This document shows, piece by piece, positions 7,939 to 53,467 of a DNA stretch of 64,000 bases. The stretch comes from Bradyrhizobium sp. Its GTDB lineage: Bacteria > Pseudomonadota > Alphaproteobacteria > Rhizobiales > Xanthobacteraceae. Position 1 is the stretch's first letter. The number at the start of each line of letters is the position of its first letter. A model generated the notes under the pieces. The model was not told the origin of the DNA and made no database searches. It saw only the letters and a list, made by a program, of their open reading frames with translations. The translations under genes were made by a program, and so were the position numbers. The stretch is from NCBI RefSeq assembly GCF_027451485.1, contig NZ_DAIDJE010000175.1, positions 1,032 through 65,031 of the forward strand, written 5' to 3'.

Positions 7939-8400
7939 ATGTCTACGCTTGACGCCATCGACCGCAAGATTCTCGGCCTTCTGCAATCCGATGGCCGCAT
8001 CACCATGGCCGAACTCGCAGAGAAGGTCGGGCTTTCGGTTTCGCCCTGCCACCGCCGCGTGAAGCTGCTGGAGGAGCGCGGCGTCATCACGCGCTATATC
8101 GCCTCCGTCGACCAGAAGTCAGTAGGCCTGCATGTCAGCGTCTTCATTTCGATCAAGCTCGCACGGCAGAAGGAAGAAGACCTCAACCGGTTCGCGCGGG
8201 CGATCTCGAAATGGGACGAGGTGCTGGAGTGCTATCTGATGACCGGCAACCGCGACTATCTGCTGCGGGTCGTCGCCGCCGATCTCTCGTCCTATGAGGC
8301 GTTCCTGAAGAACAAGCTGACACGGCTCGACGGCATCGCCTCGATCGAATCGAGTTTTGCGCTGAGCCAGGTGAAATACTCGGTCGCGCTGCCGGTGTGA
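7939..8400 (+). CDS. lrp: Lrp/AsnC-family transcriptional regulator
   Basis: ORF 7771..8400 trimmed to ATG 7939 (MSTLDAIDRKILGLLQSDGRITMAELAEKVGLSVSPCHRRVKLLEERGVI, then a RAM/AsnC_trans_reg domain). Divergent from the E1-like gene. Confidence 0.85.
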   Translation: MSTLDAIDRKILGLLQSDGRITMAELAEKVGLSVSPCHRRVKLLEERGVITRYIASVDQKSVGLHVSVFISIKLARQKEEDLNRFARAISKWDEVLECYLMTGNRDYLLRVVAADLSSYEAFLKNKLTRLDGIASIESSFALSQVKYSVALPV

Positions 8401-8418
8401 TGGCAGCCGTCGTCGAGA

Positions 8419-9291
8419 TCAGGGGTTCGGCGACCGCGCCGCCGCAAGCGCGGCAAGCTGGGAATGCCTGACTCGTTCGCGGTATGCCGTATAGACACCG
8501 CTGGACACGATGACGGCGGCGCCCGTGATGGTCCAGGCGTCGGGAACTTCACCGAAGATCACAAAGCCGAGCAGCGTGACCCAGAGCAGCTGGACGTAGG
8601 AAAACGGCGCCAGCACGGAAGCATCGGCGTAGCGAAACGCCAGCACCACGATCCACTGCCCGGCGGTCGATGCCACGCCGACGATGGTTCCGAACAGAAT
8701 GTCGTGCCAGGTCGGTGTCACCCAGACCGTCGGAACCATTACGCAGAGGATGGCAAAGCCGACGATGGACGAATAGGTCATCGTAACCATCGCGCGTTCC
8801 TGTCCGCTCATCATGCGCGTCATGATCAGGCAGGAAGCCCAGGCGAATGCGGAGGCCACGGGAAAGAACGCGGCGGCATGAAACGCGCTGGTTCCCGGGC
8901 GCAGCACGATCAGCACGCCCACCAGCCCTCCCGCCGTGGCCAGCCAGCGACGCAGGCCGACATTCTCGCCAAGGAAAGCGATCGACAGCGCGGTCACGAA
9001 CAGGGGGGAGACGAAACTGGTGGCGGACGCTTCCGCGATCGGGAGAAACCGCAACCCGGAAATAAACAGCAGCGACGAGGCGAGCAGTGCTATCGCACGT
9101 ACGACCTGCAGCATTGGACGCCGGGTTCGCAGCGCAAAGAGCGGCGAGACTGGCATCATCGCGGGAAGCATGATCAGCGCGAAGATCAGAAACCTGATCC
9201 AGGCGATCTCGACGGCTGGCAGGGTCTTCGAAAGATATTTCGACGTTGCGTCCGATGTGCCGAGAAAGATGGTCGAGGCAACGAGCAGCAT
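8419..9291 (-). CDS. DMT-superfamily (EamA-type) transporter
   Basis: ORF 8419..9651 has an R/P-rich, non-membrane 120-aa extension. Trimmed to Met at 9291 (MLLVASTIFLGTSDA...), followed by about 10 hydrophobic segments in two EamA-like halves. The start is uncertain (a GTG slightly upstream is possible). Confidence 0.7.
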   Translation of the reverse strand: MLLVASTIFLGTSDATSKYLSKTLPAVEIAWIRFLIFALIMLPAMMPVSPLFALRTRRPMLQVVRAIALLASSLLFISGLRFLPIAEASATSFVSPLFVTALSIAFLGENVGLRRWLATAGGLVGVLIVLRPGTSAFHAAAFFPVASAFAWASCLIMTRMMSGQERAMVTMTYSSIVGFAILCVMVPTVWVTPTWHDILFGTIVGVASTAGQWIVVLAFRYADASVLAPFSYVQLLWVTLLGFVIFGEVPDAWTITGAAVIVSSGVYTAYRERVRHSQLAALAAARSPNP

Positions 9292-9550
9292 AATCCCGCG
9301 CAGCGGCCGGTCATGCCGCGACGGAACCGAGGGAACCGGCTCGTTCTCCGGCCGGCGCCGCTCACGCTCAGGCGATGTCGCGCGGTCCAGCCTTGCAGCA
9401 GTTGCGGAAGGTGTCACGTTTTGAACTCGAGGCCGAACCAGGCGAATCGGGCGAACCCACCAAAGAGCCCGATCACGCCGCGGCGACAAGGCCCGAAAAC
9501 AGGAAGCGGATATGCGGCGTGCGTCGGGGCGGCGCTTCCACTGCGGGCCC

Positions 9551-10445: not shown

Positions 10446-13148
10446 TCAACTTGCTTCGGCAAGCTTCCCGTGCTTGTGGCCGATTCCCGATTGCGCAATC
10501 AGGCGCTTCAATTCGGGAATGCACGAGCCGCAATTGGTGCCGGCCTTGAGCCGCGCGCCGATTTCGGCCGCCGAGCCCGCGCCGGCCGCGATTGTCTCGC
10601 TGATCGTGGTGCGCCCCACACCAAAACAGGCACAGACGATCGGCCCCGTGCTTGCAAGGCCCTGCACCGGCTTGCCGGACAGCAGCAATCGCCTTTGCTC
10701 GTCAGTCAAGGCGGCGACCGCAAAGAGCTCTTTCGCGACTTCCCAGTCGCCGGCGTCACGCGCCGGCCCGAGAAATAGACAGGTCTCAATCGCGCCATCC
10801 GCGAAGGAGGCCGCACGATAGACGCCATCGCCGAAATCGCTGTATTCGGCAAGTTCGTCGCCCGCGACGGAACGCAGCCACGACGACCAGTCTTTCAGGT
10901 CAGCATTATCGGCAATGAGATAACCCAGTCCGCCACCGATCGCGGCGCGCGCCCACCAGGCGTGGTCGGGCAGGCTGAGTGGCTTGCGTGACAACGCGAA
11001 GCCGCGGAATACGTAGTTATAAGGCGCGATCGAAGCCGGCGTCGCCTTGGCTTCCGGCTGGCCGGAGAACGGATCGGTCAATGGCGCAACCAGCGCGCCA
11101 ACCCGCGCCGCCGACGCATTGGCTTGGCTCCAGTGGATCGGTGCGAATAGCATACCGCGCTGTTGCTTCGCGGTGACCACGACCTTGAGCGTGCATTGGC
11201 CGTGATCTGTGGTGATCCGGGCAAAGGACCCGTCCGCCAGACCATATCGAGCGGCATCGTCCGGATGGACCTCGACAAAGGGTTCCGGCAGGTGCGAACC
11301 CAACCGCGCGCTCGTGCCGGTGCGCGTCATCGTATGCCATTGATCGCGGATACGCCCGGTGTTGAGGCGGAGCGGACGCCCTTCATGGATCTCGGTCCGC
11401 AGCATCGGCGGTTCAGGCGCGACGAAGCGAGCCTTGCGGTCGCCTGTGAAGAATTCGCCGCCGGCAAAGAATCGCTGCTGACCGGTCTCGCCGGCGCGCT
11501 GCGGCCACAACATTGGCGTCAACGCGCCAAAGGCCTCGTCGCTGACATCACTCAAAGCCCCGATATCGAAATCGCGGCTGCCATTGTTTTCGAAGGCCGA
11601 GAGTGCGGCATGTTCGCGGAAAATCGCCGCCGCCGAACCATAATCGAATGCCGCGCCGAAACCGAGGCGCTTGGCGATCTCACTGACGATCCACCAGTCC
11701 GGACGCGCCTCGCCGGGCACCGGGAGGAACGCGCGCTGACGCGAGATGCGCCGCTCGGAATTGGTGACGGTGCCGGACTTCTCGCCCCAGGCAAGCGCCG
11801 GGAAAAGCACATGCGGACCGGCGGCGACGGTGTCGTTCGAGAGAACATTTTCGGAGATCACCAACAGTTCGAGCTTCCTCAATGCGCGACGCGCGGCATC
11901 CGCCTCCGGCAACGACACCGCGGGGTTGGTGCCCATCACCCAAAGCGCCTTGATCTCACCGCGGCCGATCGCCTCGAACATCTGGACTGCCTTCAGCCCT
12001 TCATGGGTGGCGATCCGCGGTGCTTGCCAAAAGCGGCGCACGCGATCGATCTCCGGCGGCGTGAAGTTCATGTGCGCGGCGAGTTGATTGGCGAGCCCGC
12101 CGACCTCGCGCCCGCCCATCGCATTCGGCTGGCCGGTGAGCGAAAACGGCGAAGCGCCGATCTTGCCGATCCGACCGGTGGCGAGGTGGCAGTTCAGGAT
12201 GGCATTGACTTTGTCGGTGCCCTGCGCTGACTGGTTGACGCCTTGCGAATAAAGCGTGACGACGCGCGGCGTCGCGGCAAACAGCCGAAAGAACGCTGCG
12301 ACTTCCTGCTCGGAGAGGCCGGTTGCCAGCGCGGTTGCCGTCACGCCGCCCGCCAGGCCGCGGGCGTGCGCAAGCGCTTCGTCGAATCCCGAGGTGTGGT
12401 GCTCGATGTAATCGCAATCGAGCACATTGTTTTCGGCGAGATGCACCAACAATCCGGCAAACAGCGCGGCGTCGGTACCGGGCTTCACGCCCAGAAACAG
12501 GTCGGCGGCTTCCGCCGTATCGGTCTTGCGCGGATCGATGACGACAATCTGCGCGCCGCGCTGCTGCTTGTTTGCCATCATGCGCTGGAACAGGATCGGA
12601 TGACACCAGGCGGCATTGGATCCGACCAGCACCAAAAGATCCGCCTCGTCGAGGTCCTCGTAGGTTCCAGGCACCGTGTCGGCGCCGAATGCGCGGCGGT
12701 GCCCGGCCACGGAAGAGGCCATGCATAGCCGCGAATTGGTATCGACGTTGGGGCTGCCGATGAATCCCTTCATCAGCTTGTTGGCGACATAATAGTCCTC
12801 GGTCAGCAGCTGCCCCGACAGATAGAACGCCACCGCACCGGGACCATCGCGCGCGACAATATGAGCAAGGCGGTGCGCAACATTGTCGAGCGCGTCGGTC
12901 CAGGCGATCCGCTCCATCGCACCGTTGCTGCAACGGATCATCGGATAGAGCAGACGATTTTCAAGGCCGAGCGTCTCGCCCAGCGCCGAGCCCTTCGAGC
13001 ACAGACGGCCGAAATTGGCCGGGTGCGCGGGATCGCCGGAAATCGCGGCGGCGCCGCTTCCGTCCGGCGTGGCCAGCACGCCGCAGCCGACGCCGCAATA
13101 GGGACAGGTGGTGGAAATTGCCCGCAGCGCGGGATCGACCGAGGTCAT
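10446..13148 (-). CDS. nasC: Assimilatory nitrate reductase catalytic subunit (Mo-bisMGD, N-terminal 4Fe-4S, C-terminal BFD-like 2Fe-2S)
   Basis: Trimmed to ATG 13148 (MTSVDPALRAISTTCPYCGVGCGV). Molybdopterin oxidoreductase body. The C-terminus has CACFGV...CGSCIPEL (BFD-like). Confidence 0.9.
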   Translation of the reverse strand: MTSVDPALRAISTTCPYCGVGCGVLATPDGSGAAAISGDPAHPANFGRLCSKGSALGETLGLENRLLYPMIRCSNGAMERIAWTDALDNVAHRLAHIVARDGPGAVAFYLSGQLLTEDYYVANKLMKGFIGSPNVDTNSRLCMASSVAGHRRAFGADTVPGTYEDLDEADLLVLVGSNAAWCHPILFQRMMANKQQRGAQIVVIDPRKTDTAEAADLFLGVKPGTDAALFAGLLVHLAENNVLDCDYIEHHTSGFDEALAHARGLAGGVTATALATGLSEQEVAAFFRLFAATPRVVTLYSQGVNQSAQGTDKVNAILNCHLATGRIGKIGASPFSLTGQPNAMGGREVGGLANQLAAHMNFTPPEIDRVRRFWQAPRIATHEGLKAVQMFEAIGRGEIKALWVMGTNPAVSLPEADAARRALRKLELLVISENVLSNDTVAAGPHVLFPALAWGEKSGTVTNSERRISRQRAFLPVPGEARPDWWIVSEIAKRLGFGAAFDYGSAAAIFREHAALSAFENNGSRDFDIGALSDVSDEAFGALTPMLWPQRAGETGQQRFFAGGEFFTGDRKARFVAPEPPMLRTEIHEGRPLRLNTGRIRDQWHTMTRTGTSARLGSHLPEPFVEVHPDDAARYGLADGSFARITTDHGQCTLKVVVTAKQQRGMLFAPIHWSQANASAARVGALVAPLTDPFSGQPEAKATPASIAPYNYVFRGFALSRKPLSLPDHAWWARAAIGGGLGYLIADNADLKDWSSWLRSVAGDELAEYSDFGDGVYRAASFADGAIETCLFLGPARDAGDWEVAKELFAVAALTDEQRRLLLSGKPVQGLASTGPIVCACFGVGRTTISETIAAGAGSAAEIGARLKAGTNCGSCIPELKRLIAQSGIGHKHGKLAEAS

Positions 13149-13161
13149 GGCACTTGTTCGA

Positions 13162-14379
13162 TCATGCGGCAGCAGCCAAGCTTGCCGCGGCACGGCCGAA
13201 CATCATGTCTCTACGGACGCCTGCAATATTTTCGCGATTACGGATCAGTTCGAGGTACCAGCGTCCATCAGCCGTATCGCCGACCAGCACTGCGCCGGCG
13301 AGCCGGCCGTTCTCGATCACGAGTTTCTTGTAGGTACCGCGCCTGACATCGCTGAACACGATCGCTTCGCTCCGGTCCGTCGCTAAAAACTCGCCTGCGG
13401 AAAACACGTTGACGCCGGATACCTTGAGATTGGTGGCCACCACGCTGCCCTGATAGGCGGCGCTGCGTCCGGCCAGATGCTGCGCCAGCGCCTTCGCCTG
13501 CTCGTAGGCCGGCTCGACCAGGCCATAACAGATGCCGCGGTGTTCGGCGCATTCGCCGAGCGCAAAGATGTCATCGGTGCCGGTCTGAAGCCGGTCGTCG
13601 ACGACGATGCCGCGATTGACCGCAATGCCCGCCTCTTTCGCCAGCGCGACATTCGGACGGATGCCGGCGGCGAAGATTACCGCATCGGCATCGATCTGGC
13701 GCCCATCGGCAAGTTCGACGGCTTCTGCGCGGCTCTGCCCGAGGATGCGGGCCGTGTTCGCGTTGAGTAGAACGTCGATGCCTTTTTTCTCGACCAGCGA
13801 CTTAAGAAGCGCTGCCGCCGGCGCATCGAGCTGGCGCTCCATCAGCCGATCCATCAGGTGAAGCAGCGTGACCGGAGCGCCCGCCTTGGCAACGCCGTAC
13901 GCCGCTTCGAGGCCGAGCAGGCCGCCGCCGATGACGACCACACGCTTTTTCGCCGCCGCCAGCGCCAGCAACAGGTCGACGTCGCGGCTGTCGCGGAACG
14001 AGCTCACGCCGGAAAGCCCGGCGCCGGGCACGTCGAGGCGGAGCGGCGAGGATCCCGTTGCGAGCACCAGTTTTGAAAAGCCGACGCTCTCCTCGCCTGC
14101 GATCTTGAGCTCGCGGCGGCCGACGTCGATTTCACTGACGGCACAGCCATATTTCAACGTCACGCCGCGATCCCGCCACCAGCTCGCGGGCCTCAGCTCG
14201 ATTTCGTGGGAAGCCGTTTCGCCCGCGAGCACCGAGGAGAGCAGAACACGGTTATAGGCAAGCCTCGGCTCGTCGCCGATGACGGCTATCGCATAGCGTC
14301 CGAGCGCGACCCTGGCGAGTTCGTCGACCAGGCGGGCCGCGGCCATCCCGTTGCCGACGATGACGAGAGATTCGCTCAC
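13162..14379 (-). CDS. flp: FAD-dependent NAD(P)H oxidoreductase (NirB N-terminal-half-like; Flp)
   Basis: I prefer GTG 14379 (VSESLVIVGNGMAAARL) because AGGAG lies 7 nt upstream and it avoids overlap with the bjgb stop at 14390. Two dinucleotide-binding motifs (VGNGMAA, VIGGGLLGLE). Confidence 0.8.
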   Translation of the reverse strand: MSESLVIVGNGMAAARLVDELARVALGRYAIAVIGDEPRLAYNRVLLSSVLAGETASHEIELRPASWWRDRGVTLKYGCAVSEIDVGRRELKIAGEESVGFSKLVLATGSSPLRLDVPGAGLSGVSSFRDSRDVDLLLALAAAKKRVVVIGGGLLGLEAAYGVAKAGAPVTLLHLMDRLMERQLDAPAAALLKSLVEKKGIDVLLNANTARILGQSRAEAVELADGRQIDADAVIFAAGIRPNVALAKEAGIAVNRGIVVDDRLQTGTDDIFALGECAEHRGICYGLVEPAYEQAKALAQHLAGRSAAYQGSVVATNLKVSGVNVFSAGEFLATDRSEAIVFSDVRRGTYKKLVIENGRLAGAVLVGDTADGRWYLELIRNRENIAGVRRDMMFGRAAASLAAAA

Positions 14380-14389
14380 CTTCTTGCTC

Positions 14390-14815
14390 CTATTCGGCCG
14401 CCAGAGGCGTGCCATAGGCTTCGGAGGTCATGAAACCGGACAGCGTGCCGTAGGCCGTGGTCCACGCCGCCGCCACTTCAGATGTCCACTCCTCGCCAAG
14501 TCCCTTTTCCAGTGCCCACAGCAAGGCGGCACCTACCACGGGATAGTGCTCCGGCTTTGCGCCATAGCCGACGTGGCGTTTTGCCAGCGCGCTCGTCACC
14601 GGCAGAATCGAGGAGAGATCGCTCAGACCGTTGACCACGACCGCGAGCGTCGCCATCAACTTCTTCCTTTGTTCGGTCATGTCGGCGGGAAACATCGCCT
14701 TGACCTGCGGCGCGACCTCGAACAGGCGGTCGTAAAAGATGGCCGCCGCTTGATCGGAGATCGGCGCTACTTTCGAGAAGCTCTGCTGCACCAGTTTGAC
14801 TTGATCGGGTGTCAT
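14390..14815 (-). CDS. bjgb: Single-domain haemoglobin (Bjgb-type globin)
   Basis: 141 aa, MTPDQVKLVQQSFSKVAPI...FYDRLFEVAPQVKAMF...HVGYG. Globin fold signature. Sits between narK and flp as in Bradyrhizobium. AGGAGAAAG SD. Confidence 0.85.
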   Translation of the reverse strand: MTPDQVKLVQQSFSKVAPISDQAAAIFYDRLFEVAPQVKAMFPADMTEQRKKLMATLAVVVNGLSDLSSILPVTSALAKRHVGYGAKPEHYPVVGAALLWALEKGLGEEWTSEVAAAWTTAYGTLSGFMTSEAYGTPLAAE

Positions 14816-14909
14816 ATCTTTCTCCTGCCTGTTGCTTCTGCCGTCATCACGTTCGGTCTGCGGGCCGAGACCGATCTTGAAAGCCGCGCTTGCCCGACGG
14901 CGTCATGCT

Positions 14910-16292
14910 TCAGACGCGCGCTTGAGCAAGGCTCGTTGCACCCGCTTCCGCAGGAGTGCGGCGCAGATAGAACCACCACGTCATGGCGAGGCATATCGCG
15001 TAGAACCCGAGATAGATGACGAGCGCGAACTGCGGACCGCCGGTCATGGCGATCGACTTGCCGAAGCCGCTCGGGATAAAGTAGCCGCCGCAGGCGCCGA
15101 TCGCGCCGATAAAGCCGAGCGCCGCCCCGCTTTCAATGCTCGCGGTCTTGATCGCCAGCGCGCGGCCGGCCTCGCCCTTGCCTTGTGATTTGCGAAGGTT
15201 CTCCTCGCGGAAGATCGACGGGATCATCCGGTAGGTCGATCCGTTGCCGATGCCGGTGGTGACGAACAGGATCAGGAACATCACGAGGAAGCCGGCGAAC
15301 TCCTTGTTGCCGACGAAATAGATGACACCGATGGTGGCGGCGGCCATCGCGATGAAATTCCAGAACGTGATGATCGCGCCGCCGATCTTGTCGGCGAGCA
15401 GACCACCGAGCGGACGCGCGAGCGAACCGACCAACGGCCCGAGGAACGCAATGCCGATGGTGATCGCCGGAAACTGGGTCTTGATCAGCAGCGGAAACGC
15501 CGCCGAGTAGCCGATGAAGGATCCGAACGTTCCGACATAGATGAAGGACATGATCCAGGTGTGCTTGCGCCCGACGATGGCGACCTGGTCCTTGAACGAT
15601 GACTTCGCCGAGGTCAGGTTGTTCATGAAATAAACGGCGCCGAACAGGGCGACGATCAGCGGCAGGACCCACATCAAGCCGGCATTCTGAAGATAGACAC
15701 CCGATACCGGCGTCGCCTGATAGAGATTGATAAGACCGGCTTCCATCAGGATCGGCGTTATCAATTGAACGCTGGAAACGCCGATATTGCCGCCCGCCGC
15801 GTTCAGGCCCAGCGCCCAGCCCTTCATGCGGTCGGGATAGAAGAAGGAGATGTTGGCCATGCTGGAGGCGAAATTGCCGCCGCCAAGGCCGGCAGTCGAT
15901 GCCACCAGCAGCATCAGCCAGAACGGCGTCTCGGGATGGCTGACGAAATAAGCGAGCCCGAAGGTCGGGATAAAGAGCACGGAGGCGGAGAAGATCGTCC
16001 AGTTGCGGCCGCCGAACGTCGTCACCGCAAAGGTATAGGGAAAGCGCATCAGCGAGCCAATCAGGCCCGGAATGGCGACGAGCTGAAACAACTGATCGGT
16101 CGTATAGTGAAAGCCCGCTGCGGGAAGCTTGGTCGCAACGATGCTCCAGATCAGCCACACCGAAAATCCAATGTGCTCGGCCACGATCGACCAGATCAGG
16201 TTGCGGCGCGCGACCGCCTTGCCTTTGGTTTCCCAGAAACTGGGATCTTCGGGTTTCCAGTCTGAAATCCAGGTCGGGTCTTTCGTGCTCAT
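14910..16292 (-). CDS. narK: MFS nitrate/nitrite transporter NarK
   Basis: 460 aa, 12 hydrophobic segments, NarK/NasA-type N-terminus (DWKPEDPSFWETKGKAVARRNL), glycine-rich nitrate-signature-like GGNFASS / GGNIGVS. Confidence 0.88.
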   Translation of the reverse strand: MSTKDPTWISDWKPEDPSFWETKGKAVARRNLIWSIVAEHIGFSVWLIWSIVATKLPAAGFHYTTDQLFQLVAIPGLIGSLMRFPYTFAVTTFGGRNWTIFSASVLFIPTFGLAYFVSHPETPFWLMLLVASTAGLGGGNFASSMANISFFYPDRMKGWALGLNAAGGNIGVSSVQLITPILMEAGLINLYQATPVSGVYLQNAGLMWVLPLIVALFGAVYFMNNLTSAKSSFKDQVAIVGRKHTWIMSFIYVGTFGSFIGYSAAFPLLIKTQFPAITIGIAFLGPLVGSLARPLGGLLADKIGGAIITFWNFIAMAAATIGVIYFVGNKEFAGFLVMFLILFVTTGIGNGSTYRMIPSIFREENLRKSQGKGEAGRALAIKTASIESGAALGFIGAIGACGGYFIPSGFGKSIAMTGGPQFALVIYLGFYAICLAMTWWFYLRRTPAEAGATSLAQARV

Positions 16293-38089: not shown

Positions 38090-38135
38090 GTGACCTCGCT
38101 TGAATTGGCAGCGACAGACTTGCGCAACGCCCCTA

Positions 38136-38204
38136 ATGTCCGAGTTTCGACATTCGTAGTCTTTCGACGCGAGCCCCTTTACGAATGTCAGAGCCGAGGG
38201 ACAT
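38136..38204. repeat. Palindromic REP-like element, GACATTCGTA-core family (imperfect copy)
   Basis: ATGTCCGAGTTTCGACATTCGTA (38136-58), 21-nt loop, TACGAATGTCAGAGCCGAGGGACAT (38180-204). Same core and loop length as 49877-49945. Confidence 0.7.
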
Positions 38205-38330
38205 TACCGAATATTGGTTTTTGTGGTGCGGCTTTCGCTCCGACGCTCCGTTGAAGCAATCGCGGCAACGTCCCAAGCTTTAAGAAACTCAGTGTCGCCA
38301 CACCCAATGCTGCAGGTCGGGCGGTGCAGC

Positions 38331-46252: not shown

Positions 46253-46340
46253 CAGCATAAGCTTTCCAAGTCGTCCCCGCGGAAGCGCGGAGCCGGGCGT
46301 CTCCTGACCAAGAGGATCTCCCGCCAGTTGCTCCGACGTT

Positions 46341-46388
46341 ATCCCGTGGAGCATCGCGTCCAGCATCCCGTGGAGCATCGCGTCCAGC
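46341..46388 (+). repeat. Perfect 24-bp tandem duplication (ATCCCGTGGAGCATCGCGTCCAGC x2)
   Basis: Units at 46341-46364 and 46365-46388 are identical, in non-coding DNA downstream of livF. Confidence 0.9.
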
Positions 46389-46576
46389 GAGGCGTCTCGA
46401 AGGATGGGATTCATCGACACAGTTCCGCGATCTCGCGGCGTGATCCGCCCGAGTCTTGCAAGTCCTTTTGCCCGGTTAAGGGCGCAAGGAATGCCGGGCG
46501 CCAAGCGCGCCCGCAGCCTTGTGTGCAAAGGTAGAAAGCACACAAGTTAGTCACCGCAGGTGGCGCCGGAAACGTC

Positions 46577-46848
46577 CGGCATTCCCCGCGCGATGGTCTT
46601 ACGGCTTATTCCACGCTCTTCCCGGCGATCGGGCGTTCTTGTCGCCGTCACCAGTGCGATGCGTCAGCATCGTCACCAGCTTGACGTCAGCGTCGAGACG
46701 TCAGAACCACGTGGCTTCGTCGTACGCTTCGCCTGCATTCGTCCGCTGCACCAAAGCGTCCATCGCATCCCGCCTCGCGTCCGTGACGATCGCGAGCCGC
46801 CCCTTTGTAAGGCGGGACGGCGCGGCTTGTAGAGATGATTTGCCCGAC
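46577..46848 (+). repeat. Dispersed ~275-nt non-coding repeat, copy B (forward orientation)
   Basis: See copy A (28177-28453). Shadow-ORF peptides from both copies share ...RDDRE/DxPL... strings. Confidence 0.7.
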
Positions 46849-47111
46849 TGGTAAAACGGAAAATATTTTCGAGCAGGACTGGACAGATAGAATCGAATTG
46901 AATGGTTTCGACAAATTGGATTTTGCGCGCGCCTGAGAAAGAGACCTCGCGAAGAATGGTCCTTTCACCGCAGGGCTGATCCCACGACAATAGGCGGCCC
47001 GAAACCTGGCGGACCGCGCAATCGGCAGTCCTTCCAAACCCGTTTATTCCATTAGCTTTACGCAGAATATTGATTTGAACTGCCTCGGATTCCGGGCCAA
47101 GTTATCGACCG

Positions 47112-47129
47112 TTCAATTGATGAATTGAA
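47112..47129. promoter_or_regulatory. Palindrome TTCAATT-gatg-AATTGAA just upstream of iorA (candidate operator)
   Basis: 7-nt perfect arms ending 17 nt before ATG 47147, in an AT-richer stretch. Confidence 0.25.
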
Positions 47130-47146
47130 CCAACCAGGGGATCGCG

Positions 47147-47596
47147 ATGGCAAACCTCACAATAAACGGAAAAACATTCAACGTCGACGTCGAGCCGGAT
47201 ACGCCGCTCTTGTGGGTGATCCGCGAGAATGTCGGCCTGACCGGCACGAAATACGGTTGCGGCATTGCACAATGCGGCGCCTGCACGGTTCATATCGACG
47301 GCGTGGCAATGCGCTCCTGCGGCGTCACCGTCAGCGATGCCGTCGGCAAGCAGATCACCACGATCGAAGGACTGGCAGGCAACGGAGCCCTGCACAAGGT
47401 GCAGCAGGCCTGGATCGACAACGACGTGCCTCAGTGCGGCTATTGCCAGAGCGGCATGATCATGGCGGTGGCGGCGCTTCTGAAAGAGAAGCCCAAGCCG
47501 ACCGACCAGGACATCAACGAGGCCATCACCAACATCTGCCGCTGCGGCACCTTCCAGCAGGTGCGGGAAGCGATTCACGCTGTCGCGAACGCCTGA
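47147..47596 (+). CDS. iorA: (2Fe-2S)-binding small subunit of a Mo-hydroxylase (IorA / aldehyde oxidoreductase small subunit type)
   Basis: 149 aa. [11 protein letters not shown] and QCGYCQSG...CRCG double 2Fe-2S motifs. Confidence 0.88.
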
Positions 47597-47606
47597 GGAG
47601 GTCATC

Positions 47607-49805
47607 ATGAATCATATGCCAAGACTTGATACTCCAAGGCTCAACCGTCGCGCTTTCGTCATCGGCAGCGCCGCGCTCGGCTCCGGCCTCGCGGTGGGTC
47701 TTGATCTTCCCGCCGGCGGTCCCACGGTGGCGCGTGCCGCCGACGGCTCGCCCGAAGTGGATGCCTGGGTCGTGATCCGGCCCGACGATACCGTTGTCAT
47801 CCGTATTGCCCGCTCCGAAATGGGCCAGGGATCGCTCACCGGTCTTGCCCAGCTCGTTGCCGAAGAACTGGAATGCGACTGGTCGAAGGTCACGACTGAA
47901 TATCCCACCCCCGGCGAGAACGTCGCCCGCAAGCGCGTTTGGGGCGACTTCTCCACCGGTGGCAGCCGCGGCATCCGCGCCTCGCAGGATTATGTCCGCA
48001 AGGGCGGCGCCACGGCGCGCATGATGCTGATCCAGGCCGCCGCGAACGAATGGAAGGTGCAGCCTTCCGAATGCACGGCCGCCAACAGCGTCATCACCCA
48101 TACGCCATCCGGGCGGACGACGACTTTCGGCAAGGTTGCCGAGGCCGCCGCTAAACTCTCCCCGCCGACCGAGGTCAAGCTGAAGGATCCGAAGGACTGG
48201 AAGCTGATCGGAAAGGGCGTCAAGCGGCTCGACACCGCCGACAAGACCACCGGCAAGATGATCTACAGCATCGACGTCAAGCTGCCGGGAATGCTCAACG
48301 CCGCGATCAAGCAATGTCCGGTGTTCGGCGGCACGCTGAAGAGCTACGACCAAGCCAAGATTGCCAACATGAAGGGCGTGAAGAAGGTCGTGAAAGTCGG
48401 CGACAACGCGATCGCCGTGGTCGCCGATACCTGGTGGCACGCCAAGACGGCACTGGATGCCCTGCCGATCGTCTGGGATGAAGGTCCCAACGCAAAGGTC
48501 TCAAGCGCATCGATCGCCAAGTGGCTTGACGAAGGTTTCGACCCCTCGCAGCCCGTCTATGTCGGCAACGAAAACGGCGACGTGAAGTCCGCACTCGCGA
48601 GCGCCGCCAAGAAGGTCGAGGCGGTCTACACGTATCCTTACCAGAACCATGCGACGATGGAGCCGCTCAACGCAACGGCCCTCTATACACCGGACAAATG
48701 CGAGGTCTGGTGCGGCACCCAGAACGGCGAGGCTGCTTTCGCGGCAGCAGTGGAAGTCTCGGGATTACCTGCCTCAAAGTGCGACGTCTACAAGCAGATG
48801 CTCGGTGGCGGCTTCGGCCGCAAGGGCAACACCGACTATGTGCGTCAGGCTGTCGCCATCGCCAAGGAGATGCCGGGCACGCCGATCAAGCTGTTGTGGT
48901 CGCGCGAAGAAGACATGCAGCACGGCGCCTATCATCCGGTCACTCATTGCAAGCTGACGGCGGGCTTCGACGCCAACAACAACCTCACCGCATTGCATAT
49001 GCGGATATCCGGGCAATCGATCCTGTTCAGCTTGCGGCCTGCGGCCCTGGTCAACGGCAAGGACCCGGTCACCTTCCAGGGCCTCAACGCGAGTGGGGAA
49101 GCGGCGTTCGGCTATTCGGTGCCCAATCTTCTGATCGAGCACTCGATGCGCAACCCGCCCGTTCCGCCGGGCTTCTGGCGCGGCGTCAACGTCAACCACA
49201 ACGCGATCTATGTCGAATGCTTCATGGACGAGCTCGCGCATGCGGTTAACCAGGATCCGCTCGAATTCCGCCGCAAGCTGATGGCCAATAACCCGAAGCA
49301 CCTGGCCGTGCTCAACGCGGTGGCGGAAAAGATCGGCTGGGGCAAGCCAGCGCCGCAAGGCATCTACCGCGGTCTCGCCCATTTCATGGGCTTCGGCAGT
49401 TACGTCGCAGGTGCTGCCGAAATCTCGGTCGTCGACGGCAACAAGATCAAGATCCATCGCATCGTAGGCGCCACCGATCCGGGCTTTGCCGTCAACCCCG
49501 CCCAGATCGACCGCCAGGTCGCCGGCTCGTTTGTCTATGGACTGTCGGGCCTGTTCTACGGCGGCTGCACCGTCAAGGACGGCCGCATCGAACAGGCGAA
49601 TTTCGACACCTACAATTCGATGCGGATTGCCGAAATGCCGAAAGTGGAATCCGTCATCATGCCAAGCGGCAGCGGGACCTGGGGCGGCGTCGGCGAGCCG
49701 ACGATTTGCGTGGCGGCGCCAGCGGTGTTGAACGCGTATTTCGCAGCGACCGGAAAACGAATTCGTTCGGTGCCGCTGCGGGATCAGAACATCACCTTCG
49801 CTTGA
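47607..49805 (+). CDS. iorB: Molybdopterin-binding large subunit (IorB / xanthine dehydrogenase family), Tat signal
   Basis: 732 aa, GAGGAGG SD. RRAFVIGSAALGSGLAVG Tat leader. Aldehyde-oxidase/xanthine-DH a/b hammerhead and Mo-binding regions (GGGFGRK). Confidence 0.85.
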   Translation: MNHMPRLDTPRLNRRAFVIGSAALGSGLAVGLDLPAGGPTVARAADGSPEVDAWVVIRPDDTVVIRIARSEMGQGSLTGLAQLVAEELECDWSKVTTEYPTPGENVARKRVWGDFSTGGSRGIRASQDYVRKGGATARMMLIQAAANEWKVQPSECTAANSVITHTPSGRTTTFGKVAEAAAKLSPPTEVKLKDPKDWKLIGKGVKRLDTADKTTGKMIYSIDVKLPGMLNAAIKQCPVFGGTLKSYDQAKIANMKGVKKVVKVGDNAIAVVADTWWHAKTALDALPIVWDEGPNAKVSSASIAKWLDEGFDPSQPVYVGNENGDVKSALASAAKKVEAVYTYPYQNHATMEPLNATALYTPDKCEVWCGTQNGEAAFAAAVEVSGLPASKCDVYKQMLGGGFGRKGNTDYVRQAVAIAKEMPGTPIKLLWSREEDMQHGAYHPVTHCKLTAGFDANNNLTALHMRISGQSILFSLRPAALVNGKDPVTFQGLNASGEAAFGYSVPNLLIEHSMRNPPVPPGFWRGVNVNHNAIYVECFMDELAHAVNQDPLEFRRKLMANNPKHLAVLNAVAEKIGWGKPAPQGIYRGLAHFMGFGSYVAGAAEISVVDGNKIKIHRIVGATDPGFAVNPAQIDRQVAGSFVYGLSGLFYGGCTVKDGRIEQANFDTYNSMRIAEMPKVESVIMPSGSGTWGGVGEPTICVAAPAVLNAYFAATGKRIRSVPLRDQNITFA

Positions 49806-49876
49806 AATCTGAGGCGTCGGCTTGGTGGCCGCCGCCCTTTCCTCGGATCGTGTGGATGGACAAGCTGCGGCCTGAT

Positions 49877-49945
49877 GTCCCTTTGGTTCTGACATTCGTA
49901 TGGTGTTGCCCCGAGAGTTTTTACGAATGTCAGAACCAAAGGGAC
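49877..49945. repeat. Perfect 24-bp-arm palindrome, GACATTCGTA-core family
   Basis: GTCCCTTTGGTTCTGACATTCGTA (49877-49900), 21-nt loop, exact reverse complement at 49922-49945. Mirrored in shadow ORFs on both strands (VPLVLTF...YECQNQRD). Confidence 0.9.
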
Positions 49946-49980
49946 ACCCGCGAATATAGGTTTCCAATGCGGATTTGGAA

Positions 49981-50026
49981 TTGACATTCGCTATGAGAAC
50001 TCGCGGCGATACTGTGCGAATGTCAA
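49981..50026. repeat. 11-bp inverted repeat TTGACATTCGC / GCGAATGTCAA overlapping the soxF start codon
   Basis: Arms at 49981-49991 and 50016-50026 (24-nt spacer). ATG 50020 lies inside the right arm. Shares the GACATTCG core with the neighbouring palindrome. Confidence 0.75.
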
Positions 50027-51306
50027 ATCCACCGCGCTGGCTGGCGACGCGCAGACATGTCGTACGCGGGCTGGCTGCGGCAGCAACTTCGGTTGCGTTG
50101 CCCTGCCCGTCTTTTGCCCAATCGGCCGCACGCGTCGTCGTCATCGGAGGCGGCTTCGGCGGCGCGAGTTGCGCGCGCGCCTTGCGGAAGATCAATCCCC
50201 GCCTGCACGTCACGCTCATTGAGCCGAATCGCGTCTTCACCGCCTGCCCCTTCAGCAATGAGGTGATCGCCGGACTGCGCGACATCGCCGCGCAGCAATT
50301 CACCTATGACAAGATCGCGGCCGACGGGGTGAGCGTCGTCGCGCAGGCCGCCGCCGGAGTCGATGCGCAGGCAAGGACAGTCAGCCTTGCCGACGGCACG
50401 TCACTCCCCTACGACCGACTTGTGCTGGCGCCCGGCATCGATATGCGGTTTGGCGTATTGGCCGGCTATGACGAGGCGGCAGCCGAAAAAATGCCGCACG
50501 CCTGGAAGGCCGGCGGGCAGACCGTGCTGCTGCGGCGTCAGCTCGAGGCGATGGAAGATGGCGGCGTTGTCGCGCTCGCGGTCCCGGCAACCCCCTATCG
50601 ATGTCCGCCCGCGCCATACGAGCGGGCGAGCCTGATCGCCTATTACCTGAAGGCGAAAAAGCCGCGTTCGAAGATTCTCATCCTTGACGCCAAGGACATC
50701 TTTTCGCAGCAACGGTTGTTCGAGAAGGCCTGGAAGCAATTCTATCCCGGCATGATCGAACGCATCCCGCTGTCGCAAGGCGGCCGCGTCGTTTCGGTCG
50801 AGCCTGCGACCAATAAGCTGGTCACCGATTTCGGCGATCACGAGGTTCAGGTCGCCAATGTCATCCCGCCGCAAAAAGCCGGTAACATCGCGCACATCGC
50901 CGGCGCAGCCGACAAGACCGGCTGGTGTCCGATCGACGCCGCGACATTTGCCTCGAAGCTCGTAGCCAACATTCATGTCATTGGCGATGCGGTGATCGGC
51001 GGCAACGCTCCGAAGTCCGCGTCCGCCGCGTATGCGGAAGGCAAGGCCTGCGCCGCCGTGGTGGCGAGCCTGATCGCCGGAACGGCTCCCGAACGGCCGA
51101 CGATCGAAGGCACCTGCTACAACATCGCGGCGCCCGGCTATGGCTTTTCGCAGTCCGGCAATTACCAGCCGCGGGACGATATGTTCATCGAGCTGCTTGG
51201 ATCTGCCTTCACAAGCCCGGCCAATGCGCCGGACGAGCTTCGCCGGCGCGAAGCGGAACAGGCGAAGACCTGGTTCAAGACCATTACGGTGGAAACCTTT
51301 GGCTAG
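50020..51306 (+). CDS. soxF: Flavocytochrome-c sulfide dehydrogenase flavoprotein subunit (FccB/SoxF-type), Tat signal
   Basis: Trimmed to ATG 50020 (MSNPPRWLATRRHVVRGLAAAA). VVVIGGGFGGASCA FAD motif. PYRCPPAPYERA is typical of FccB/SQR-like flavoproteins. Confidence 0.8.
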   Translation: MSNPPRWLATRRHVVRGLAAAATSVALPCPSFAQSAARVVVIGGGFGGASCARALRKINPRLHVTLIEPNRVFTACPFSNEVIAGLRDIAAQQFTYDKIAADGVSVVAQAAAGVDAQARTVSLADGTSLPYDRLVLAPGIDMRFGVLAGYDEAAAEKMPHAWKAGGQTVLLRRQLEAMEDGGVVALAVPATPYRCPPAPYERASLIAYYLKAKKPRSKILILDAKDIFSQQRLFEKAWKQFYPGMIERIPLSQGGRVVSVEPATNKLVTDFGDHEVQVANVIPPQKAGNIAHIAGAADKTGWCPIDAATFASKLVANIHVIGDAVIGGNAPKSASAAYAEGKACAAVVASLIAGTAPERPTIEGTCYNIAAPGYGFSQSGNYQPRDDMFIELLGSAFTSPANAPDELRRREAEQAKTWFKTITVETFG

Positions 51307-51754
51307 GTTGGCCATTCCTTTGGTCGGAAGCTGCCTCGCAGCCGCGCTGCTGTTGCCGCGCGTGGCCGTCGGAGAGGAACTAAAGTCCTATACCACCACC
51401 GGCGATGCCATTGTGGAATCACTAACCGGCGCGACCGGTGATCCGGCGCGTGGCCGCAAGCTTGTCGTGGAGCGCACCAACACATGTATTCTGTGCCACA
51501 GCGGTCCGTTTCCCGAGGAAAAGTTCCAGGGCGACCTCGCGCCCAATCTTTCGGGTGTCGGCAGCCGCTGGTCGGTCGGGCAGCTCCGGCTCCGGCTGGT
51601 CGACGCCTCCCGCATCAATCCGGGGACGATCATGCCGTCTTACTACCGGGTGGACGGCCTCGATCGGGTGGCGAACGCCTTTCGCGGCAAGCCGATCCTG
51701 TCGGCCGAGCAGATTGAGGACATCGTGGCGTATCTGGCGACGCTGCGCGAATAG
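51299..51754 (+). CDS. soxX: Mono-haem c-type cytochrome SoxX
   Basis: ORF 51140..51754 trimmed. TTG 51299 (LARLAIPLVGSCLAAALLL signal, GGTGGA 5 nt upstream) or TTG 51308. CILCH haem site. GQLRLRLVDASRINPGTIMPSYY is the SoxX pattern I remember. Confidence 0.7.
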   Translation: MARLAIPLVGSCLAAALLLPRVAVGEELKSYTTTGDAIVESLTGATGDPARGRKLVVERTNTCILCHSGPFPEEKFQGDLAPNLSGVGSRWSVGQLRLRLVDASRINPGTIMPSYYRVDGLDRVANAFRGKPILSAEQIEDIVAYLATLRE

Positions 51755-51882
51755 GAAAGCACCGTGCGGCGAGCTCGGAGGCCGTACGGAAAACTGGTAG
51801 TTGCAAGAGCTCCTTTGATTCCGAAGTTCGCATCAGAGGTCGCCACGTTAGCTTGCGAACTTGCGAATCGGAGCTCGATGGG

Positions 51883-52359
51883 ATGCGAAGACAACCAGTC
51901 CCTACCCGCCGCCGCTTTCTTGGCCTCGCCGCCGGCGCGATCGGTGCGTTGCCGGCGGCCATCAGCGTGCGCCCTGCCGAAGCCACACCCGAAATGATGG
52001 CGACCGCGATCCGCGCCGTCACAGGCGGTGCGCCGGTCCAGACCGGCAAGGTCAAGCTCGACATTCCGCCGCTCGTGGAGAACGGCAACAGCGTGCCGAT
52101 GACGGTGAGCGTGACAAGTGCGATGACGGCGAACGACTACGTCAAGAGCATCCACGTCTTCAACGAAAAAAATCCGCAGCCCAATCTCGGCAACTTCTAT
52201 CTCAAGCCGAACGCAGGCCGTGCCCAGGTTTCCACCCGTGTGCGGCTCGCCGACAGCCAGAAGATCACCGCGATTGCCAAGCTTTCCGACGGCTCGTTCT
52301 GGTCGACCACCGCCGATGTGGTGGTGACGCTGGCGGCCTGCACCGAGGACGTGATCTGA
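51883..52359 (+). CDS. SoxY-related sulfur-carrier-like protein with non-canonical C-terminal arm (…LAACTEDVI)
   Basis: Trimmed to ATG 51883 (MRRQPVPTRRRFLGLAAGA Tat leader). SoxY Ig-like body (PLVENGNSVPMTV..., IHVFNEKNP). The C-terminus lacks GGCGG. Single Cys codon at 52339-52341. Confidence 0.75.
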   Translation: MRRQPVPTRRRFLGLAAGAIGALPAAISVRPAEATPEMMATAIRAVTGGAPVQTGKVKLDIPPLVENGNSVPMTVSVTSAMTANDYVKSIHVFNEKNPQPNLGNFYLKPNAGRAQVSTRVRLADSQKITAIAKLSDGSFWSTTADVVVTLAACTEDVI

Positions 52360-52679
52360 TGACCGCCGCCTTGATCAACGTCCCCAAGAAGGCGAAGGCC
52401 GGCGACATCATCGAAATCAAGGCGCTGACGTCGCACGTGATGGAGACCGGCTATCGCCACACCGCAACCGGCGAAGTGATCCCTCGCGACATCATCACGA
52501 GCTTCACCTGCCGCTTCGAAGGGGACGAAGTTTTCCGCGCCGATTTCTTCCCCGCGACCGCAGCCAACCCGTTCATCTCGTTTTTCACGAACGCGAGCAA
52601 AAGCGGAAAATTTGATTTCGAATGGATCGGCGACAACGGTTTTTCCCAGACCGCCTCGGCCAGCATCACCGTCGAATGA
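52359..52679 (+). CDS. soxZ: SoxZ
   Basis: 106 aa from ATG 52359 (ATGA overlap with the soxY-like stop). KAGDIIEIKALTSHVMETG... matches SoxZ. Confidence 0.8.
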   Translation: MTAALINVPKKAKAGDIIEIKALTSHVMETGYRHTATGEVIPRDIITSFTCRFEGDEVFRADFFPATAANPFISFFTNASKSGKFDFEWIGDNGFSQTASASITVE

Positions 52680-53467
52680 AGGCGACCGCAACCATAGTCC
52701 TGACCTCGCTGCTGATCGTAGCCGGCATCGTCCCTCGCCCGCTGATCGCAACCGAAATCCCCGCCTCGGAGCGCCGATCCGGCTACACCTTCATGGGTGC
52801 GGAAACCAGGGCGATGCAGGATGACGATACGACCAATCCCGGCATGTTGGGCGTGCTTGACGGCGAAGCGCTGTGGAACCGCAAGGCGGGCTCGGCCGGC
52901 AAGTCCTGCGCCGGTTGCCATCAGGATGCGAAGGTCACCATGAAGGGCGTGGCGGCGCGTTATCCAGCCTACGACAAGGAGCTCAGCCGTCCCGTCAACC
53001 TCGAACAACGCATCAATCTCTGCCGGACGCGGCATCAGCAAGCCGAACCGCTTGCTTACGAGAAGCACGAACTGCTTGCCTTGACCACATACGTTGCAGA
53101 GCAGTCCCGCGGCATGCCGATTACGCCAGACCCGACACCCGAGCTTCAGCCGTTCGTGGCGAAGGGACGCGATCTCTTCATGCACCGGCAGGGGCAGCTC
53201 AACATCGCCTGCACCAACTGCCACGACGACAACTGGGACAAGCATTTGGCCGGTGCTGCGATCACCCAGGCCATGCCGACGGGTTATCCGATCTACCGGC
53301 TGGACTGGCAATCGCTGGGGTCGCTGGAGCGGCGATTGCGCAATTGCATCACCGGCCAGCGCGCCCAGAACTACGATTACGGCGCAGTGGAACTGGTGGA
53401 GCTCGAGCTTTATCTGATGGCGCGCGCGCGCGGCATGCCGATCGAGACACCGGCCGTGCGGCCTTAG
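52676..53467 (+). CDS. soxA: Di-haem c-type cytochrome SoxA
   Basis: Trimmed to ATG 52676 (ATGA overlap with soxZ; MKATATIVLTSLLIVAG signal). CAGCH and CTNCH haem motifs. Conserved Cys in RRLRNCITGQR. Confidence 0.8.
   Translation: MKATATIVLTSLLIVAGIVPRPLIATEIPASERRSGYTFMGAETRAMQDDDTTNPGMLGVLDGEALWNRKAGSAGKSCAGCHQDAKVTMKGVAARYPAYDKELSRPVNLEQRINLCRTRHQQAEPLAYEKHELLALTTYVAEQSRGMPITPDPTPELQPFVAKGRDLFMHRQGQLNIACTNCHDDNWDKHLAGAAITQAMPTGYPIYRLDWQSLGSLERRLRNCITGQRAQNYDYGAVELVELELYLMARARGMPIETPAVRP

Follow-up and report, generated by a model that had tools for sequence, protein, structure and literature searches.

The 64,000-nucleotide (nt) stretch of Bradyrhizobium sp. DNA analyzed here (contig NZ_DAIDJE010000175.1, positions 1,032 to 65,031; hereafter the window) carries a module of seven genes, all located on the + strand between 47147 and 53467, in which a two-subunit molybdenum (Mo) enzyme of the xanthine oxidase (XO) family is followed by the five Sox-like genes soxF, soxX, soxY', soxZ and soxA. 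The product of soxY' is a SoxY paralog with an AAC arm in place of the GGCGG arm of canonical SoxY. The comparison of related loci reveals that the Mo enzyme is encoded directly upstream of the Sox-like genes in 119 of 120 informative AAC-arm loci. It is well supported that the module is a self-contained periplasmic unit with an XO-family Mo dehydrogenase and a dedicated Cys-arm carrier at its core, and likewise well supported that it does not serve the cell as thiosulfate-respiration system. We regard it as an evenly balanced question whether SoxY'Z is the dedicated partner of the molybdoenzyme in the sense that its Cys arm enters the Mo site, be it as a substrate carrier or as a periplasmic donor of the Mo=S ligand. 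The genes of the module are the following:

47147–47596, + strand: [2Fe-2S] small subunit of an XO-family Mo enzyme, Pfam Fer2/Fer2_2 (gene calls of identical contigs)
47607–49805, + strand: Mo-cofactor large subunit of the IorB/membrane aldehyde dehydrogenase (ALDH) type, 732 amino acids (aa), Pfam MoCoBD_2-MoCoBD_1-MoCoBD_2
50020–51306, + strand: soxF/fccB-like flavoprotein of the flavocytochrome c sulfide dehydrogenase (FCSD) type, 428 aa, Pfam FCSD_central (3.5e-46), FCSD-flav_bind (3.4e-15) and Pyr_redox_2
51299–51754, + strand: soxX, mono-haem cytochrome c with haem motif CILCH, TIGR04485 75.1 bits (cutoff 61)
51755–51882, + strand: spacer between soxX and soxY', 128 nt
51883–52359, + strand: soxY', SoxY paralog of 158 aa, predicted to be exported by the twin-arginine translocation (Tat) pathway, arm VTLAAC(153)TEDVI
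52359–52679, + strand: soxZ, partner of SoxY', 106 aa, without signal peptide, TIGR04490 84 bits (cutoff 76), Pfam SoxZ 5e-27
52676–53467, + strand: soxA, di-haem cytochrome with haem motifs CAGCH and CTNCH, TIGR04484 228.5 bits (cutoff 110)

SoxY' belongs to a curated family of AAC-arm proteins

An initial annotation of the window, made from the sequence alone, had described the Sox-like genes as soxF-X-Y'-Z-A with an altered SoxY arm. Searches with Pfam and NCBIfam profiles bear out these gene identities, and the five open reading frames (ORFs) on the + strand at 50020–53467 are all intact. SoxY' scores 225.5 bits against the NCBIfam model TIGR04487 'SoxY-related AACIE arm protein' (cutoff 172, E 2e-67) and stays below the cutoff of the true-SoxY model TIGR04488 (108 vs 125 bits), so that the profile comparison asked for at the outset came out on the side of the AACIE family. 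The family label, which the initial annotation had given, is indeed the name of TIGR04487 and also that of an NCBI record, 'SoxY-related AACIE arm protein [Bradyrhizobium sp.]', that is 100% identical to SoxY'.

The protein starts with the twin-arginine leader MRRQPVPTRRRFLGLAAGA... and ends in VVVTLAACTEDVI, with the codon of the arm Cys at 52339–52341. In an alignment with Paracoccus SoxY (2ox5), this Cys153 falls opposite the carrier Cys, and canonical SoxY and SoxY' have in common that this Cys stands two residues before the ancestral C-terminus. Besides the model score, SoxY' thus has the remaining features of the TIGR04487 family, namely an A-A-C-x-[E/D] arm with the Cys at the carrier position and a Tat leader together with an adjoining SoxZ, and it lacks the GGCGG arm that goes with TIGR04488. 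The motif LAACT[ED][ED]xx is present in 120/120 close homologs and in 80/80 species loci, and A151, A152 and C153 are invariant across 48 diverse AAC-arm members. A library clustered at 50% identity gives the arm consensus VTLAAC[ITLV][ED] followed by 0–6 residues, with lower scores for canonical GGCGG proteins. Since the arm is kept in all of these homologs and loci, a frameshift or sequencing error that hides a GGCGG arm is excluded. AAC-arm SoxY proteins have matches in more than 570 species genomes, which is a lower bound, and also occur in soil and TARA ocean metagenomes. Two plasmid matches with 46–47% identity, in Methylosinus (L100) and Indioceanicola (L101), were left uncounted, as they are canonical GGCGG SoxY proteins accompanied by SoxB.

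A further relationship is that to NCBIfam TIGR04557, the 'quinoprotein dehydrogenase-associated SoxYZ-like carrier', against which SoxY' gives a sub-cutoff match of 65 bits (cutoff 140). Both are SoxYZ-derived, stand outside the Sox pathway and are tied to a periplasmic dehydrogenase; unlike the proteins described here, the TIGR04557 carrier is a fused Y-Z protein with a pyrroloquinoline quinone-dependent partner enzyme and without SoxAX.

The Mo enzyme is the constant partner of SoxY'Z

The Mo hydroxylase upstream of soxF had initially been taken for an unrelated gene that bounds the cluster. The neighbourhood comparison overturns this view and shows it to be the most constant partner of the Sox-like genes. 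The order Fer2-MoCoBD-SoxF-SoxX-SoxY'-SoxZ-SoxA is found in 65 of the 66 loci of Bradyrhizobium-family species that have enough upstream sequence, and the genes downstream vary. As this linkage could be a matter of vertical inheritance in one genus, more distant lineages were examined, which gave the following arrangements:

L086, a Beijerinckiaceae metagenome-assembled genome: Fer2-MoCoBD-small cytochrome c-FCSD-SoxX-SoxY'-SoxZ-SoxA, in which successive genes overlap by 4 nt from the Mo gene as far as soxY'
L088, a metagenome contig: the order of L086 without the small cytochrome
L091 (SoxY' 48% identical): the same eight genes as L086
L090, a short contig: MoCoBD-SoxX-SoxY'-SoxZ-SoxA, FCSD absent
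L095 (SoxY' 46% identical): Fer2-MoCoBD-SoxX-SoxY'-SoxZ-SoxA, FCSD absent
L098, L099 and L104, replicons of Neorhizobium, Methylobacterium and Roseomonas: module present, in Roseomonas with FCSD after soxA

The genes that flank the module differ in every lineage compared, and in several lineages outside Bradyrhizobium the Mo enzyme is translationally coupled to the Sox-like genes. Distant arm variants, used as seeds for a scan of metagenomes, led to 80 loci, among whose arms are AACIDGG, SACLEEGLI, SACMDES and, from the TARA ocean data, AACVVL. The Mo large subunit is encoded directly upstream in all 46 informative metagenome loci, that is, those in which 450 bp or more of sequence precede the first Sox-like gene. 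Because the Mo enzyme belongs to the module, the initial argument that the system has no release enzyme rested on an incomplete parts list.

The association persists where other Sox-like genes are missing. Four metagenome loci (L123, L127, L141 and L148) consist of a minimal operon, Fe-Mo-SoxY'-SoxZ, from which SoxX and SoxA are missing. The SoxY' proteins of L141 (536–901) and L123 lack their own signal peptide, and the start of soxY' overlaps the stop codon of the Mo gene in a GTGA sequence there, which suggests that SoxY' is exported with the Mo enzyme as a complex. The SoxY' of L127, which is related to those of L141 and L123, has a short RRRSFL leader. FCSD is missing from L095, L090 and many metagenome loci, and the emphasis that had been placed on a sulfide-dehydrogenase flavoprotein does not hold up, as many otherwise complete modules do without it. 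The constant core therefore consists of the Mo enzyme and SoxY'Z, SoxAX is usual, and FCSD and the small cytochrome are optional.

The small cytochrome is a mono-haem FccA-like protein with a CxxCH motif that is encoded in L086, L091, L099 and L018 and absent from the window, although the FccB/SoxF flavoprotein is present there. In Beijerinckiaceae, Methylobacterium, L091 and some Bradyrhizobium, its gene (CSGCH ... MxRIAKGF) separates the Mo gene from soxF. The gap between the Mo gene and soxF measures about 390 bp in L018 (7894–8281), compared to 49806–50019 in the window, whose lineage has lost the FccA-like gene.

SoxB and SoxCD are absent from the module and its relatives

Neither the window nor any of about 170 related loci gave a tblastn match (E≤1e-6) to SoxB and SoxC seeds from canonical clusters (for SoxB those of Paracoccus and Methylosinus), in agreement with the initial statement that SoxB and SoxCD are not part of the cluster. 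A second SoxY is likewise absent from the window and from every AAC-arm locus. The other large ORFs of the window are unrelated to SoxB; their products include an aldehyde dehydrogenase, a NasA-like nitrate reductase, major facilitator superfamily (MFS) transporters and a glycogen synthase. The nitrate reductase belongs to an assimilatory nitrate-reductase-like cluster on the − strand (10446–16292), unrelated to the module, with a NasA-type molybdopterin oxidoreductase that carries a BFD-like [2Fe-2S] domain, a NirB-like pyridine-nucleotide-disulphide reductase and an MFS transporter.

When compared to the canonical Sox system of Paracoccus and Rhodovulum (SoxXA-YZ-B-CD), the module shares SoxAX with a Cys-ligated catalytic haem, the SoxYZ fold, Tat and Sec export and the optional SoxF. 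SoxA and SoxX both score above their cutoffs, and in the alignment with Rhodovulum SoxA (1h31, E 2e-45) SoxA retains its two CxxCH motifs along with the two distal Cys ligands, the latter in the motifs NLCRT and RLRNC, which align opposite CRT and RGC of 1h31. The module differs in its AAC[ITLV][ED] arm and tail in place of GGCGG, in the absence of SoxB/SoxCD and in having a Mo enzyme as constant partner instead. In green sulfur bacteria the cluster soxJXYZAKBW shows a flavoprotein-X-Y-Z-A order like that of the window; SoxB, SoxK and a GGCGG SoxY are present there and a Mo hydroxylase is not.

The cluster type as such had been described before. Starkeya novella, a soil alphaproteobacterium with a complete canonical sox locus, contains a second cluster, soxX2Y2Z2A2F2 (Snov_1977-1982), in one operon with the XO-family Mo enzyme Snov_1975/1976 and without SoxB/CD (PMC3797975). 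The two-subunit Mo enzyme adjoins the Sox-like genes on the same strand there, as it does at 47147–47596 and 47607–49805 of the window, and FCSD-type flavocytochrome, SoxX, Y, Z and A are common to both clusters, while the small FccA-like cytochrome gene of Starkeya is missing in the window. Judged by its gene content, Starkeya SoxY2 is likely to have the same type of arm. SoxAX2 and SoxYZ2 of S. novella were undetectable in proteomes, and very little transcript was measured on glucose, methanol or thiosulfate; the authors proposed that the cluster has no functional significance or plays a role in untested conditions (PMC3797975). Closer to the window, in the same genus, B. diazoefficiens USDA110 possesses two soxY homologs, of which soxY1 in the canonical locus is essential and soxY2 (sox locus II) dispensable for thiosulfate oxidation, as reported in PMC5748708 with reference to Masuda et al. 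2010; the 2010 study reportedly assayed only thiosulfate. The genome encodes an AACIE-arm SoxY (...LAACTEEMN) about 70% identical to SoxY' of the window, with the same gene order, and as one of the two homologs mentioned in that account lies in the canonical locus, soxY2 is presumably the AAC-arm gene. In the two organisms studied the AAC-arm module is, by these accounts, probably neither needed for nor induced by thiosulfate, and the initial expectation of a chemistry unlike textbook thiosulfate oxidation fits this literature on orthologous clusters as far as it is reported in PMC5748708 and PMC3797975. Our literature search found no paper that assigns a function to AACIE-arm SoxY, in line with the initial remark that no assigned biochemistry was known. 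The novelty of the module had been overrated, however, given the curated NCBIfam family and the description of a cluster with the Mo enzyme in S. novella in 2013: what the window contains is an ordinary Bradyrhizobium example of a cluster type that is known, curated and still uncharacterised.

These data also bear on the idea of a spare Sox system, in which SoxAX2 and SoxY'Z would feed canonical SoxB/SoxCD encoded elsewhere in the genome and widen the substrate range as isoenzymes. SoxX, SoxZ and SoxA do exceed the cutoffs of the 'true' NCBIfam models, complete canonical sox loci are also present in B. diazoefficiens and S. novella, and isoenzyme roles of duplicated SoxAX have been proposed in literature that PMC3797975 cites. 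SoxY', on the other hand, fails the true-SoxY model and lacks the GGCGG arm to which SoxB and SoxCD bind, soxY2 is unable to replace soxY1 and its loss causes no thiosulfate phenotype by the account in PMC5748708, thiosulfate brings no induction in Starkeya (PMC3797975), and the steady companion in the loci compared is the Mo enzyme, with SoxB and SoxC found in none of them. A spare Sox system is thus very unlikely.

The Mo enzyme and its possible interplay with the SoxY' arm

The Mo large subunit carries the Tat leader LNRRAFVIG and the conserved catalytic Glu motif GGVGEPT. Together with the subunit that holds two [2Fe-2S] clusters, this gives the architecture of an XO-family Mo hydroxylase of the IorAB/membrane ALDH type. 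Its nearest solved structure is the large subunit of a Gluconobacter aldehyde dehydrogenase (8gy3_C, E 1.5e-81 over the full length). The best NCBIfam matches of the small subunit are gamma or small subunits of XO-family enzymes, all under the equivalog cutoffs, and no equivalog model reaches its cutoff for the Mo enzyme. The small subunit lacks a signal peptide and presumably reaches the periplasm together with the large subunit, directly upstream of which it is encoded in essentially all related loci. The resemblance to the three-subunit dehydrogenases IorAB and Gluconobacter AldFGH (8gy3) extends to a [2Fe-2S] subunit, a Tat-exported MoCoBD subunit, the lack of an FAD subunit and a cytochrome c outlet; unlike these enzymes, that of the window has no tri-haem cytochrome subunit and is followed by SoxX/SoxA and a Cys-arm carrier. 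Neither a tri-haem or c2-type cytochrome nor XdhC/MocA is encoded in the window or in the Sox-linked genome loci. Orthologs of the large subunit form a tight group with 55–75% identity (60–75% in Sox-linked loci of other families), and the next paralogs reach only about 42%. Upstream of the small-subunit gene, about 900 bp (46253–47146) are without convincing ORF and hold 12-nt-periodic direct repeats (46341–46388) and a 19-nt inverted repeat (46482–46500/46573–46591); this stretch may act as promoter or regulatory region for the module.

Tentatively, and with somewhat less than even confidence, we propose that the Mo enzyme, and not SoxB/SoxCD, is visited by the sulfur-loaded SoxY' arm, which would act as a substrate carrier. 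SoxAX would oxidatively attach sulfur to Cys153 on the SoxY'Z arm, and FCSD, where present, would provide sulfane sulfur from sulfide. The loaded arm would then dock into the Mo enzyme, which would stand in for SoxCD and SoxB of the textbook cycle and oxidize the carrier-bound sulfane with water-derived oxygen. A four-electron product would be a thiol-SO2 adduct that leaves as sulfite without the help of a hydrolase, and this hydrolase-free release would explain the missing SoxB. The electrons would exit via the two [2Fe-2S] clusters to c-type cytochromes.

Several observations weigh against this proposal. To our knowledge, no XO-family enzyme is known to oxidize sulfur, and the minimal Mo-SoxY'Z operons lack SoxAX, the proposed loader. 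Orthologs of the Mo large subunit (58–72% identity) also occur without Sox genes on plasmid records of Methylosinus, Sinorhizobium and Agrobacterium (L102, L103, L105 and L106), in these arrangements:

Sinorhizobium: c2-type cytochrome-Fer2-MoCoBD, XdhC not nearby
Agrobacterium: Fer2-MoCoBD-cytochrome c2-XdhC-MocA
Methylosinus OB3b: multihaem cytochrome-Fer2-MoCoBD with divergent XdhC/MocA and also an adjoining arylsulfatase

In a neighbour-joining tree the Sox-free Mo orthologs are nested among the Sox-linked ones, and essentially no residues separate the two groups (one weak column among about 730). The existence of Sox-free orthologs and the lack of distinguishing residues indicate that the Mo enzyme can work alone and bears no sign of adaptation to a protein-bound substrate. 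The second cluster of S. novella, besides not being induced by thiosulfate, was barely expressed in all conditions tested (PMC3797975). Moreover, a hairpin directly follows the Mo gene in the window:

49813–49836, + strand: terminator-like GC-rich hairpin, GAGCGGCGGC...GCCGCCGCTC with a T-run, followed by CTTTCC, directly 3' of the Mo gene

This hairpin with its T-run is kept in the Bradyrhizobium relatives (L006–L020) and lacking where the genes overlap (Beijerinckiaceae L086, L091). Its conservation implies that the Mo and sox-like genes of Bradyrhizobium may be separate or attenuated transcripts.

Part of this evidence favours the view that the two gene sets are merely co-located. The Mo enzyme would then be an ordinary periplasmic dehydrogenase of aldehydes or N-heterocycles that shares with the Sox-like proteins an electron route, a regulon or a freely diffusible intermediate, and in one variant SoxX/SoxA would substitute for the c2-type cytochrome in electron transfer. 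The nearest solved relative is an aldehyde dehydrogenase, c2-type cytochromes pair with Sox-free orthologs and are usually missing from Sox-linked operons, and the hairpin and the absence of specificity-determining positions point in the same direction. We nevertheless consider co-location alone unlikely, because the linkage in 119 of 120 loci persists across unrelated flanks and comes with translational coupling, pure electron transfer leaves the invariant carrier Cys unexplained, and the operons that consist only of the Mo enzyme and SoxY'Z, without SoxAX, are likewise not accounted for. The cytochromes beside the Sox-free orthologs were also considered as SoxX-like proteins and dismissed, as they are of the c2 type.

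The dependence between the partners is one-sided: SoxY'Z is essentially never found without the Mo enzyme, which for its part can get by with a cytochrome alone. XO-family enzymes need a terminal Mo=S sulfido ligand that they can lose, and the cytoplasmic XdhC/cysteine-desulfurase route is out of reach in the periplasm. Rather than delivering a substrate, a persulfide on the arm, formed from sulfide via SoxAX and/or FCSD, might install or restore this ligand in the periplasm, with the arm reaching into the funnel of the active site. The asymmetric dependence fits such a cofactor service better than it fits the substrate-carrier model; the service would also account for the dispensable SoxB/SoxCD and for the lack of a thiosulfate phenotype or induction, and it agrees with the lack of specificity-determining differences between Sox-linked and Sox-free Mo subunits. 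In-situ sulfuration has a precedent in the CoxD/E/F-dependent maturation of assembled CO dehydrogenase. XdhC/MocA genes, furthermore, adjoin the Sox-free orthologs of Methylosinus and Agrobacterium as well as the outgroup, and adjoin no AAC-arm locus of a genome or plasmid and a single one from a metagenome (L129). This complementarity of XdhC and Sox genes is suggestive and not absolute, as L129 holds both and the Sinorhizobium orthologs have neither XdhC nor SoxY'Z nearby. Sulfuration of the Mo cofactor in the periplasm would, however, be without precedent, a machine of two to six genes would be costly for a repair function, most periplasmic XO-family enzymes do without one, and the minimal Mo-SoxY'Z operons have no persulfide loader. 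We therefore find the cofactor service rather doubtful as the explanation, and retain the substrate carrier as our tentative proposal.

The module is maintained by selection and locally disturbed by insertions

The ratio of nonsynonymous to synonymous substitutions (dN/dS) relative to five relatives lies between 0.09 and 0.30 for all seven genes (soxF 0.13–0.19, soxY' 0.10–0.15, Mo large subunit about 0.10), and all of them are thus under purifying selection. That the module is a decaying, functionless remnant of a duplicated sox operon is thereby largely refuted and hardly credible: the ORFs in the window are all intact, hundreds of species as well as marine and soil metagenomes share the conserved arm, and the gene order is kept across families. 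The observations that would fit decay are the very low expression in Starkeya with the authors' remark on 'no functional significance' (PMC3797975), the repeat-element and spacer insertions in the window, and frameshifts in two related loci. The latter apparent frameshifts affect, in one strain of N. galegae (L098 4701–6870, pNgVX), the Mo large subunit and, in L091 (GCA_000473085.1), the FCSD, which is split into ORFs of 207 aa and 171 aa (8338–9504); they could be sequencing errors or local decay.

The five Sox-like genes had been described as tightly coupled. This is correct for soxY', soxZ and soxA: the TGA stop codon of soxY' (52357–59) and the ATG of soxZ (52359–61) have one base in common, and the TGA of soxZ (52677–79) and the ATG of soxA (52676–78) overlap by 4 nt. 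It does not apply to soxX and soxY', which are separated by the 128-nt spacer, as opposed to about 19 nt in the closest relatives (L006–L013). The long spacer is a lineage-specific insertion; it contains repeated GAGCTCG-like motifs. The start of soxX is ambiguous, with TTG 51299, ATG 51224 and TTG 51320 each chosen by a different gene caller; tblastn alignments of SoxX in relatives start at residue 1 and overlap the end of soxF.

The start of soxF has been reshaped by a mobile element:

49877–50043, no strand assigned: palindromic repeat element of about 165 bp, resembling a miniature inverted-repeat transposable element or a repetitive extragenic palindrome, with two hairpins and the core TGACATTCG/CGAATGTCA

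Its arms comprise a perfect 25-nt inverted repeat (49876–49900/49922–49946) and one of 16 nt (49976–49991/50016–50031). The element is inserted in the first codons of soxF, and its end provides the present ATG at 50020 with preservation of the Tat motif. It is absent from L006, L008 and L013, where SoxF begins with MDALRLMATRRH, and the ancestral start is left stranded upstream at about 49857 in the window. No obvious Shine-Dalgarno sequence precedes the new start. The same soxF site carries the element in L011 (8098–8275), and other copies are located at about 38120–38300 in the window and, in L012, in the interval from soxZ to soxA (about 10800–10990). An operator or RNA switch as explanation of the inverted repeats upstream of soxF was ruled out, because the element is mobile, absent in close relatives and present elsewhere; the Rfam matches at these repeats are sub-threshold hairpin matches to miRNA models. 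The encoded SoxF carries the Tat motif TRRHVV and the motif GGGFGG. Near-identical SoxF proteins are annotated publicly with either 428 aa or 374 aa, the shorter form of which would drop the Tat leader and the GGGFGG FAD motif; these calls are probably due to start-codon confusion from the insertion of the repeat element.

Implications for Sox-derived biochemistry

To the known cluster type our analysis adds the near-universal linkage of SoxY'Z with the Mo enzyme, the minimal operons and the asymmetric dependence. This affects how sox genes are counted. AACIE-arm SoxY proteins are routinely taken as a 'sox gene' in sulfur-cycle surveys or discarded for the missing GGC; the SoxY family survey in PMC11237559 dropped sequences without the GGC motif and hence excluded the AAC-arm clade. 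Since the Mo dehydrogenase is the invariable partner, and SoxB, SoxCD and even SoxAX and FCSD are dispensable, AAC-arm genes are no evidence of thiosulfate oxidation.

The Mo enzyme and SoxY'Z represent a concrete and testable pair in the genetically tractable Bradyrhizobium or Starkeya. If the arm enters the Mo site, both Sox biochemistry and XO-family enzymology would be extended. The enzyme would then be the first in the xanthine oxidase family that depends on a carrier protein, and the module a new branch of Sox-derived biochemistry that is widespread in soil and marine Alphaproteobacteria.

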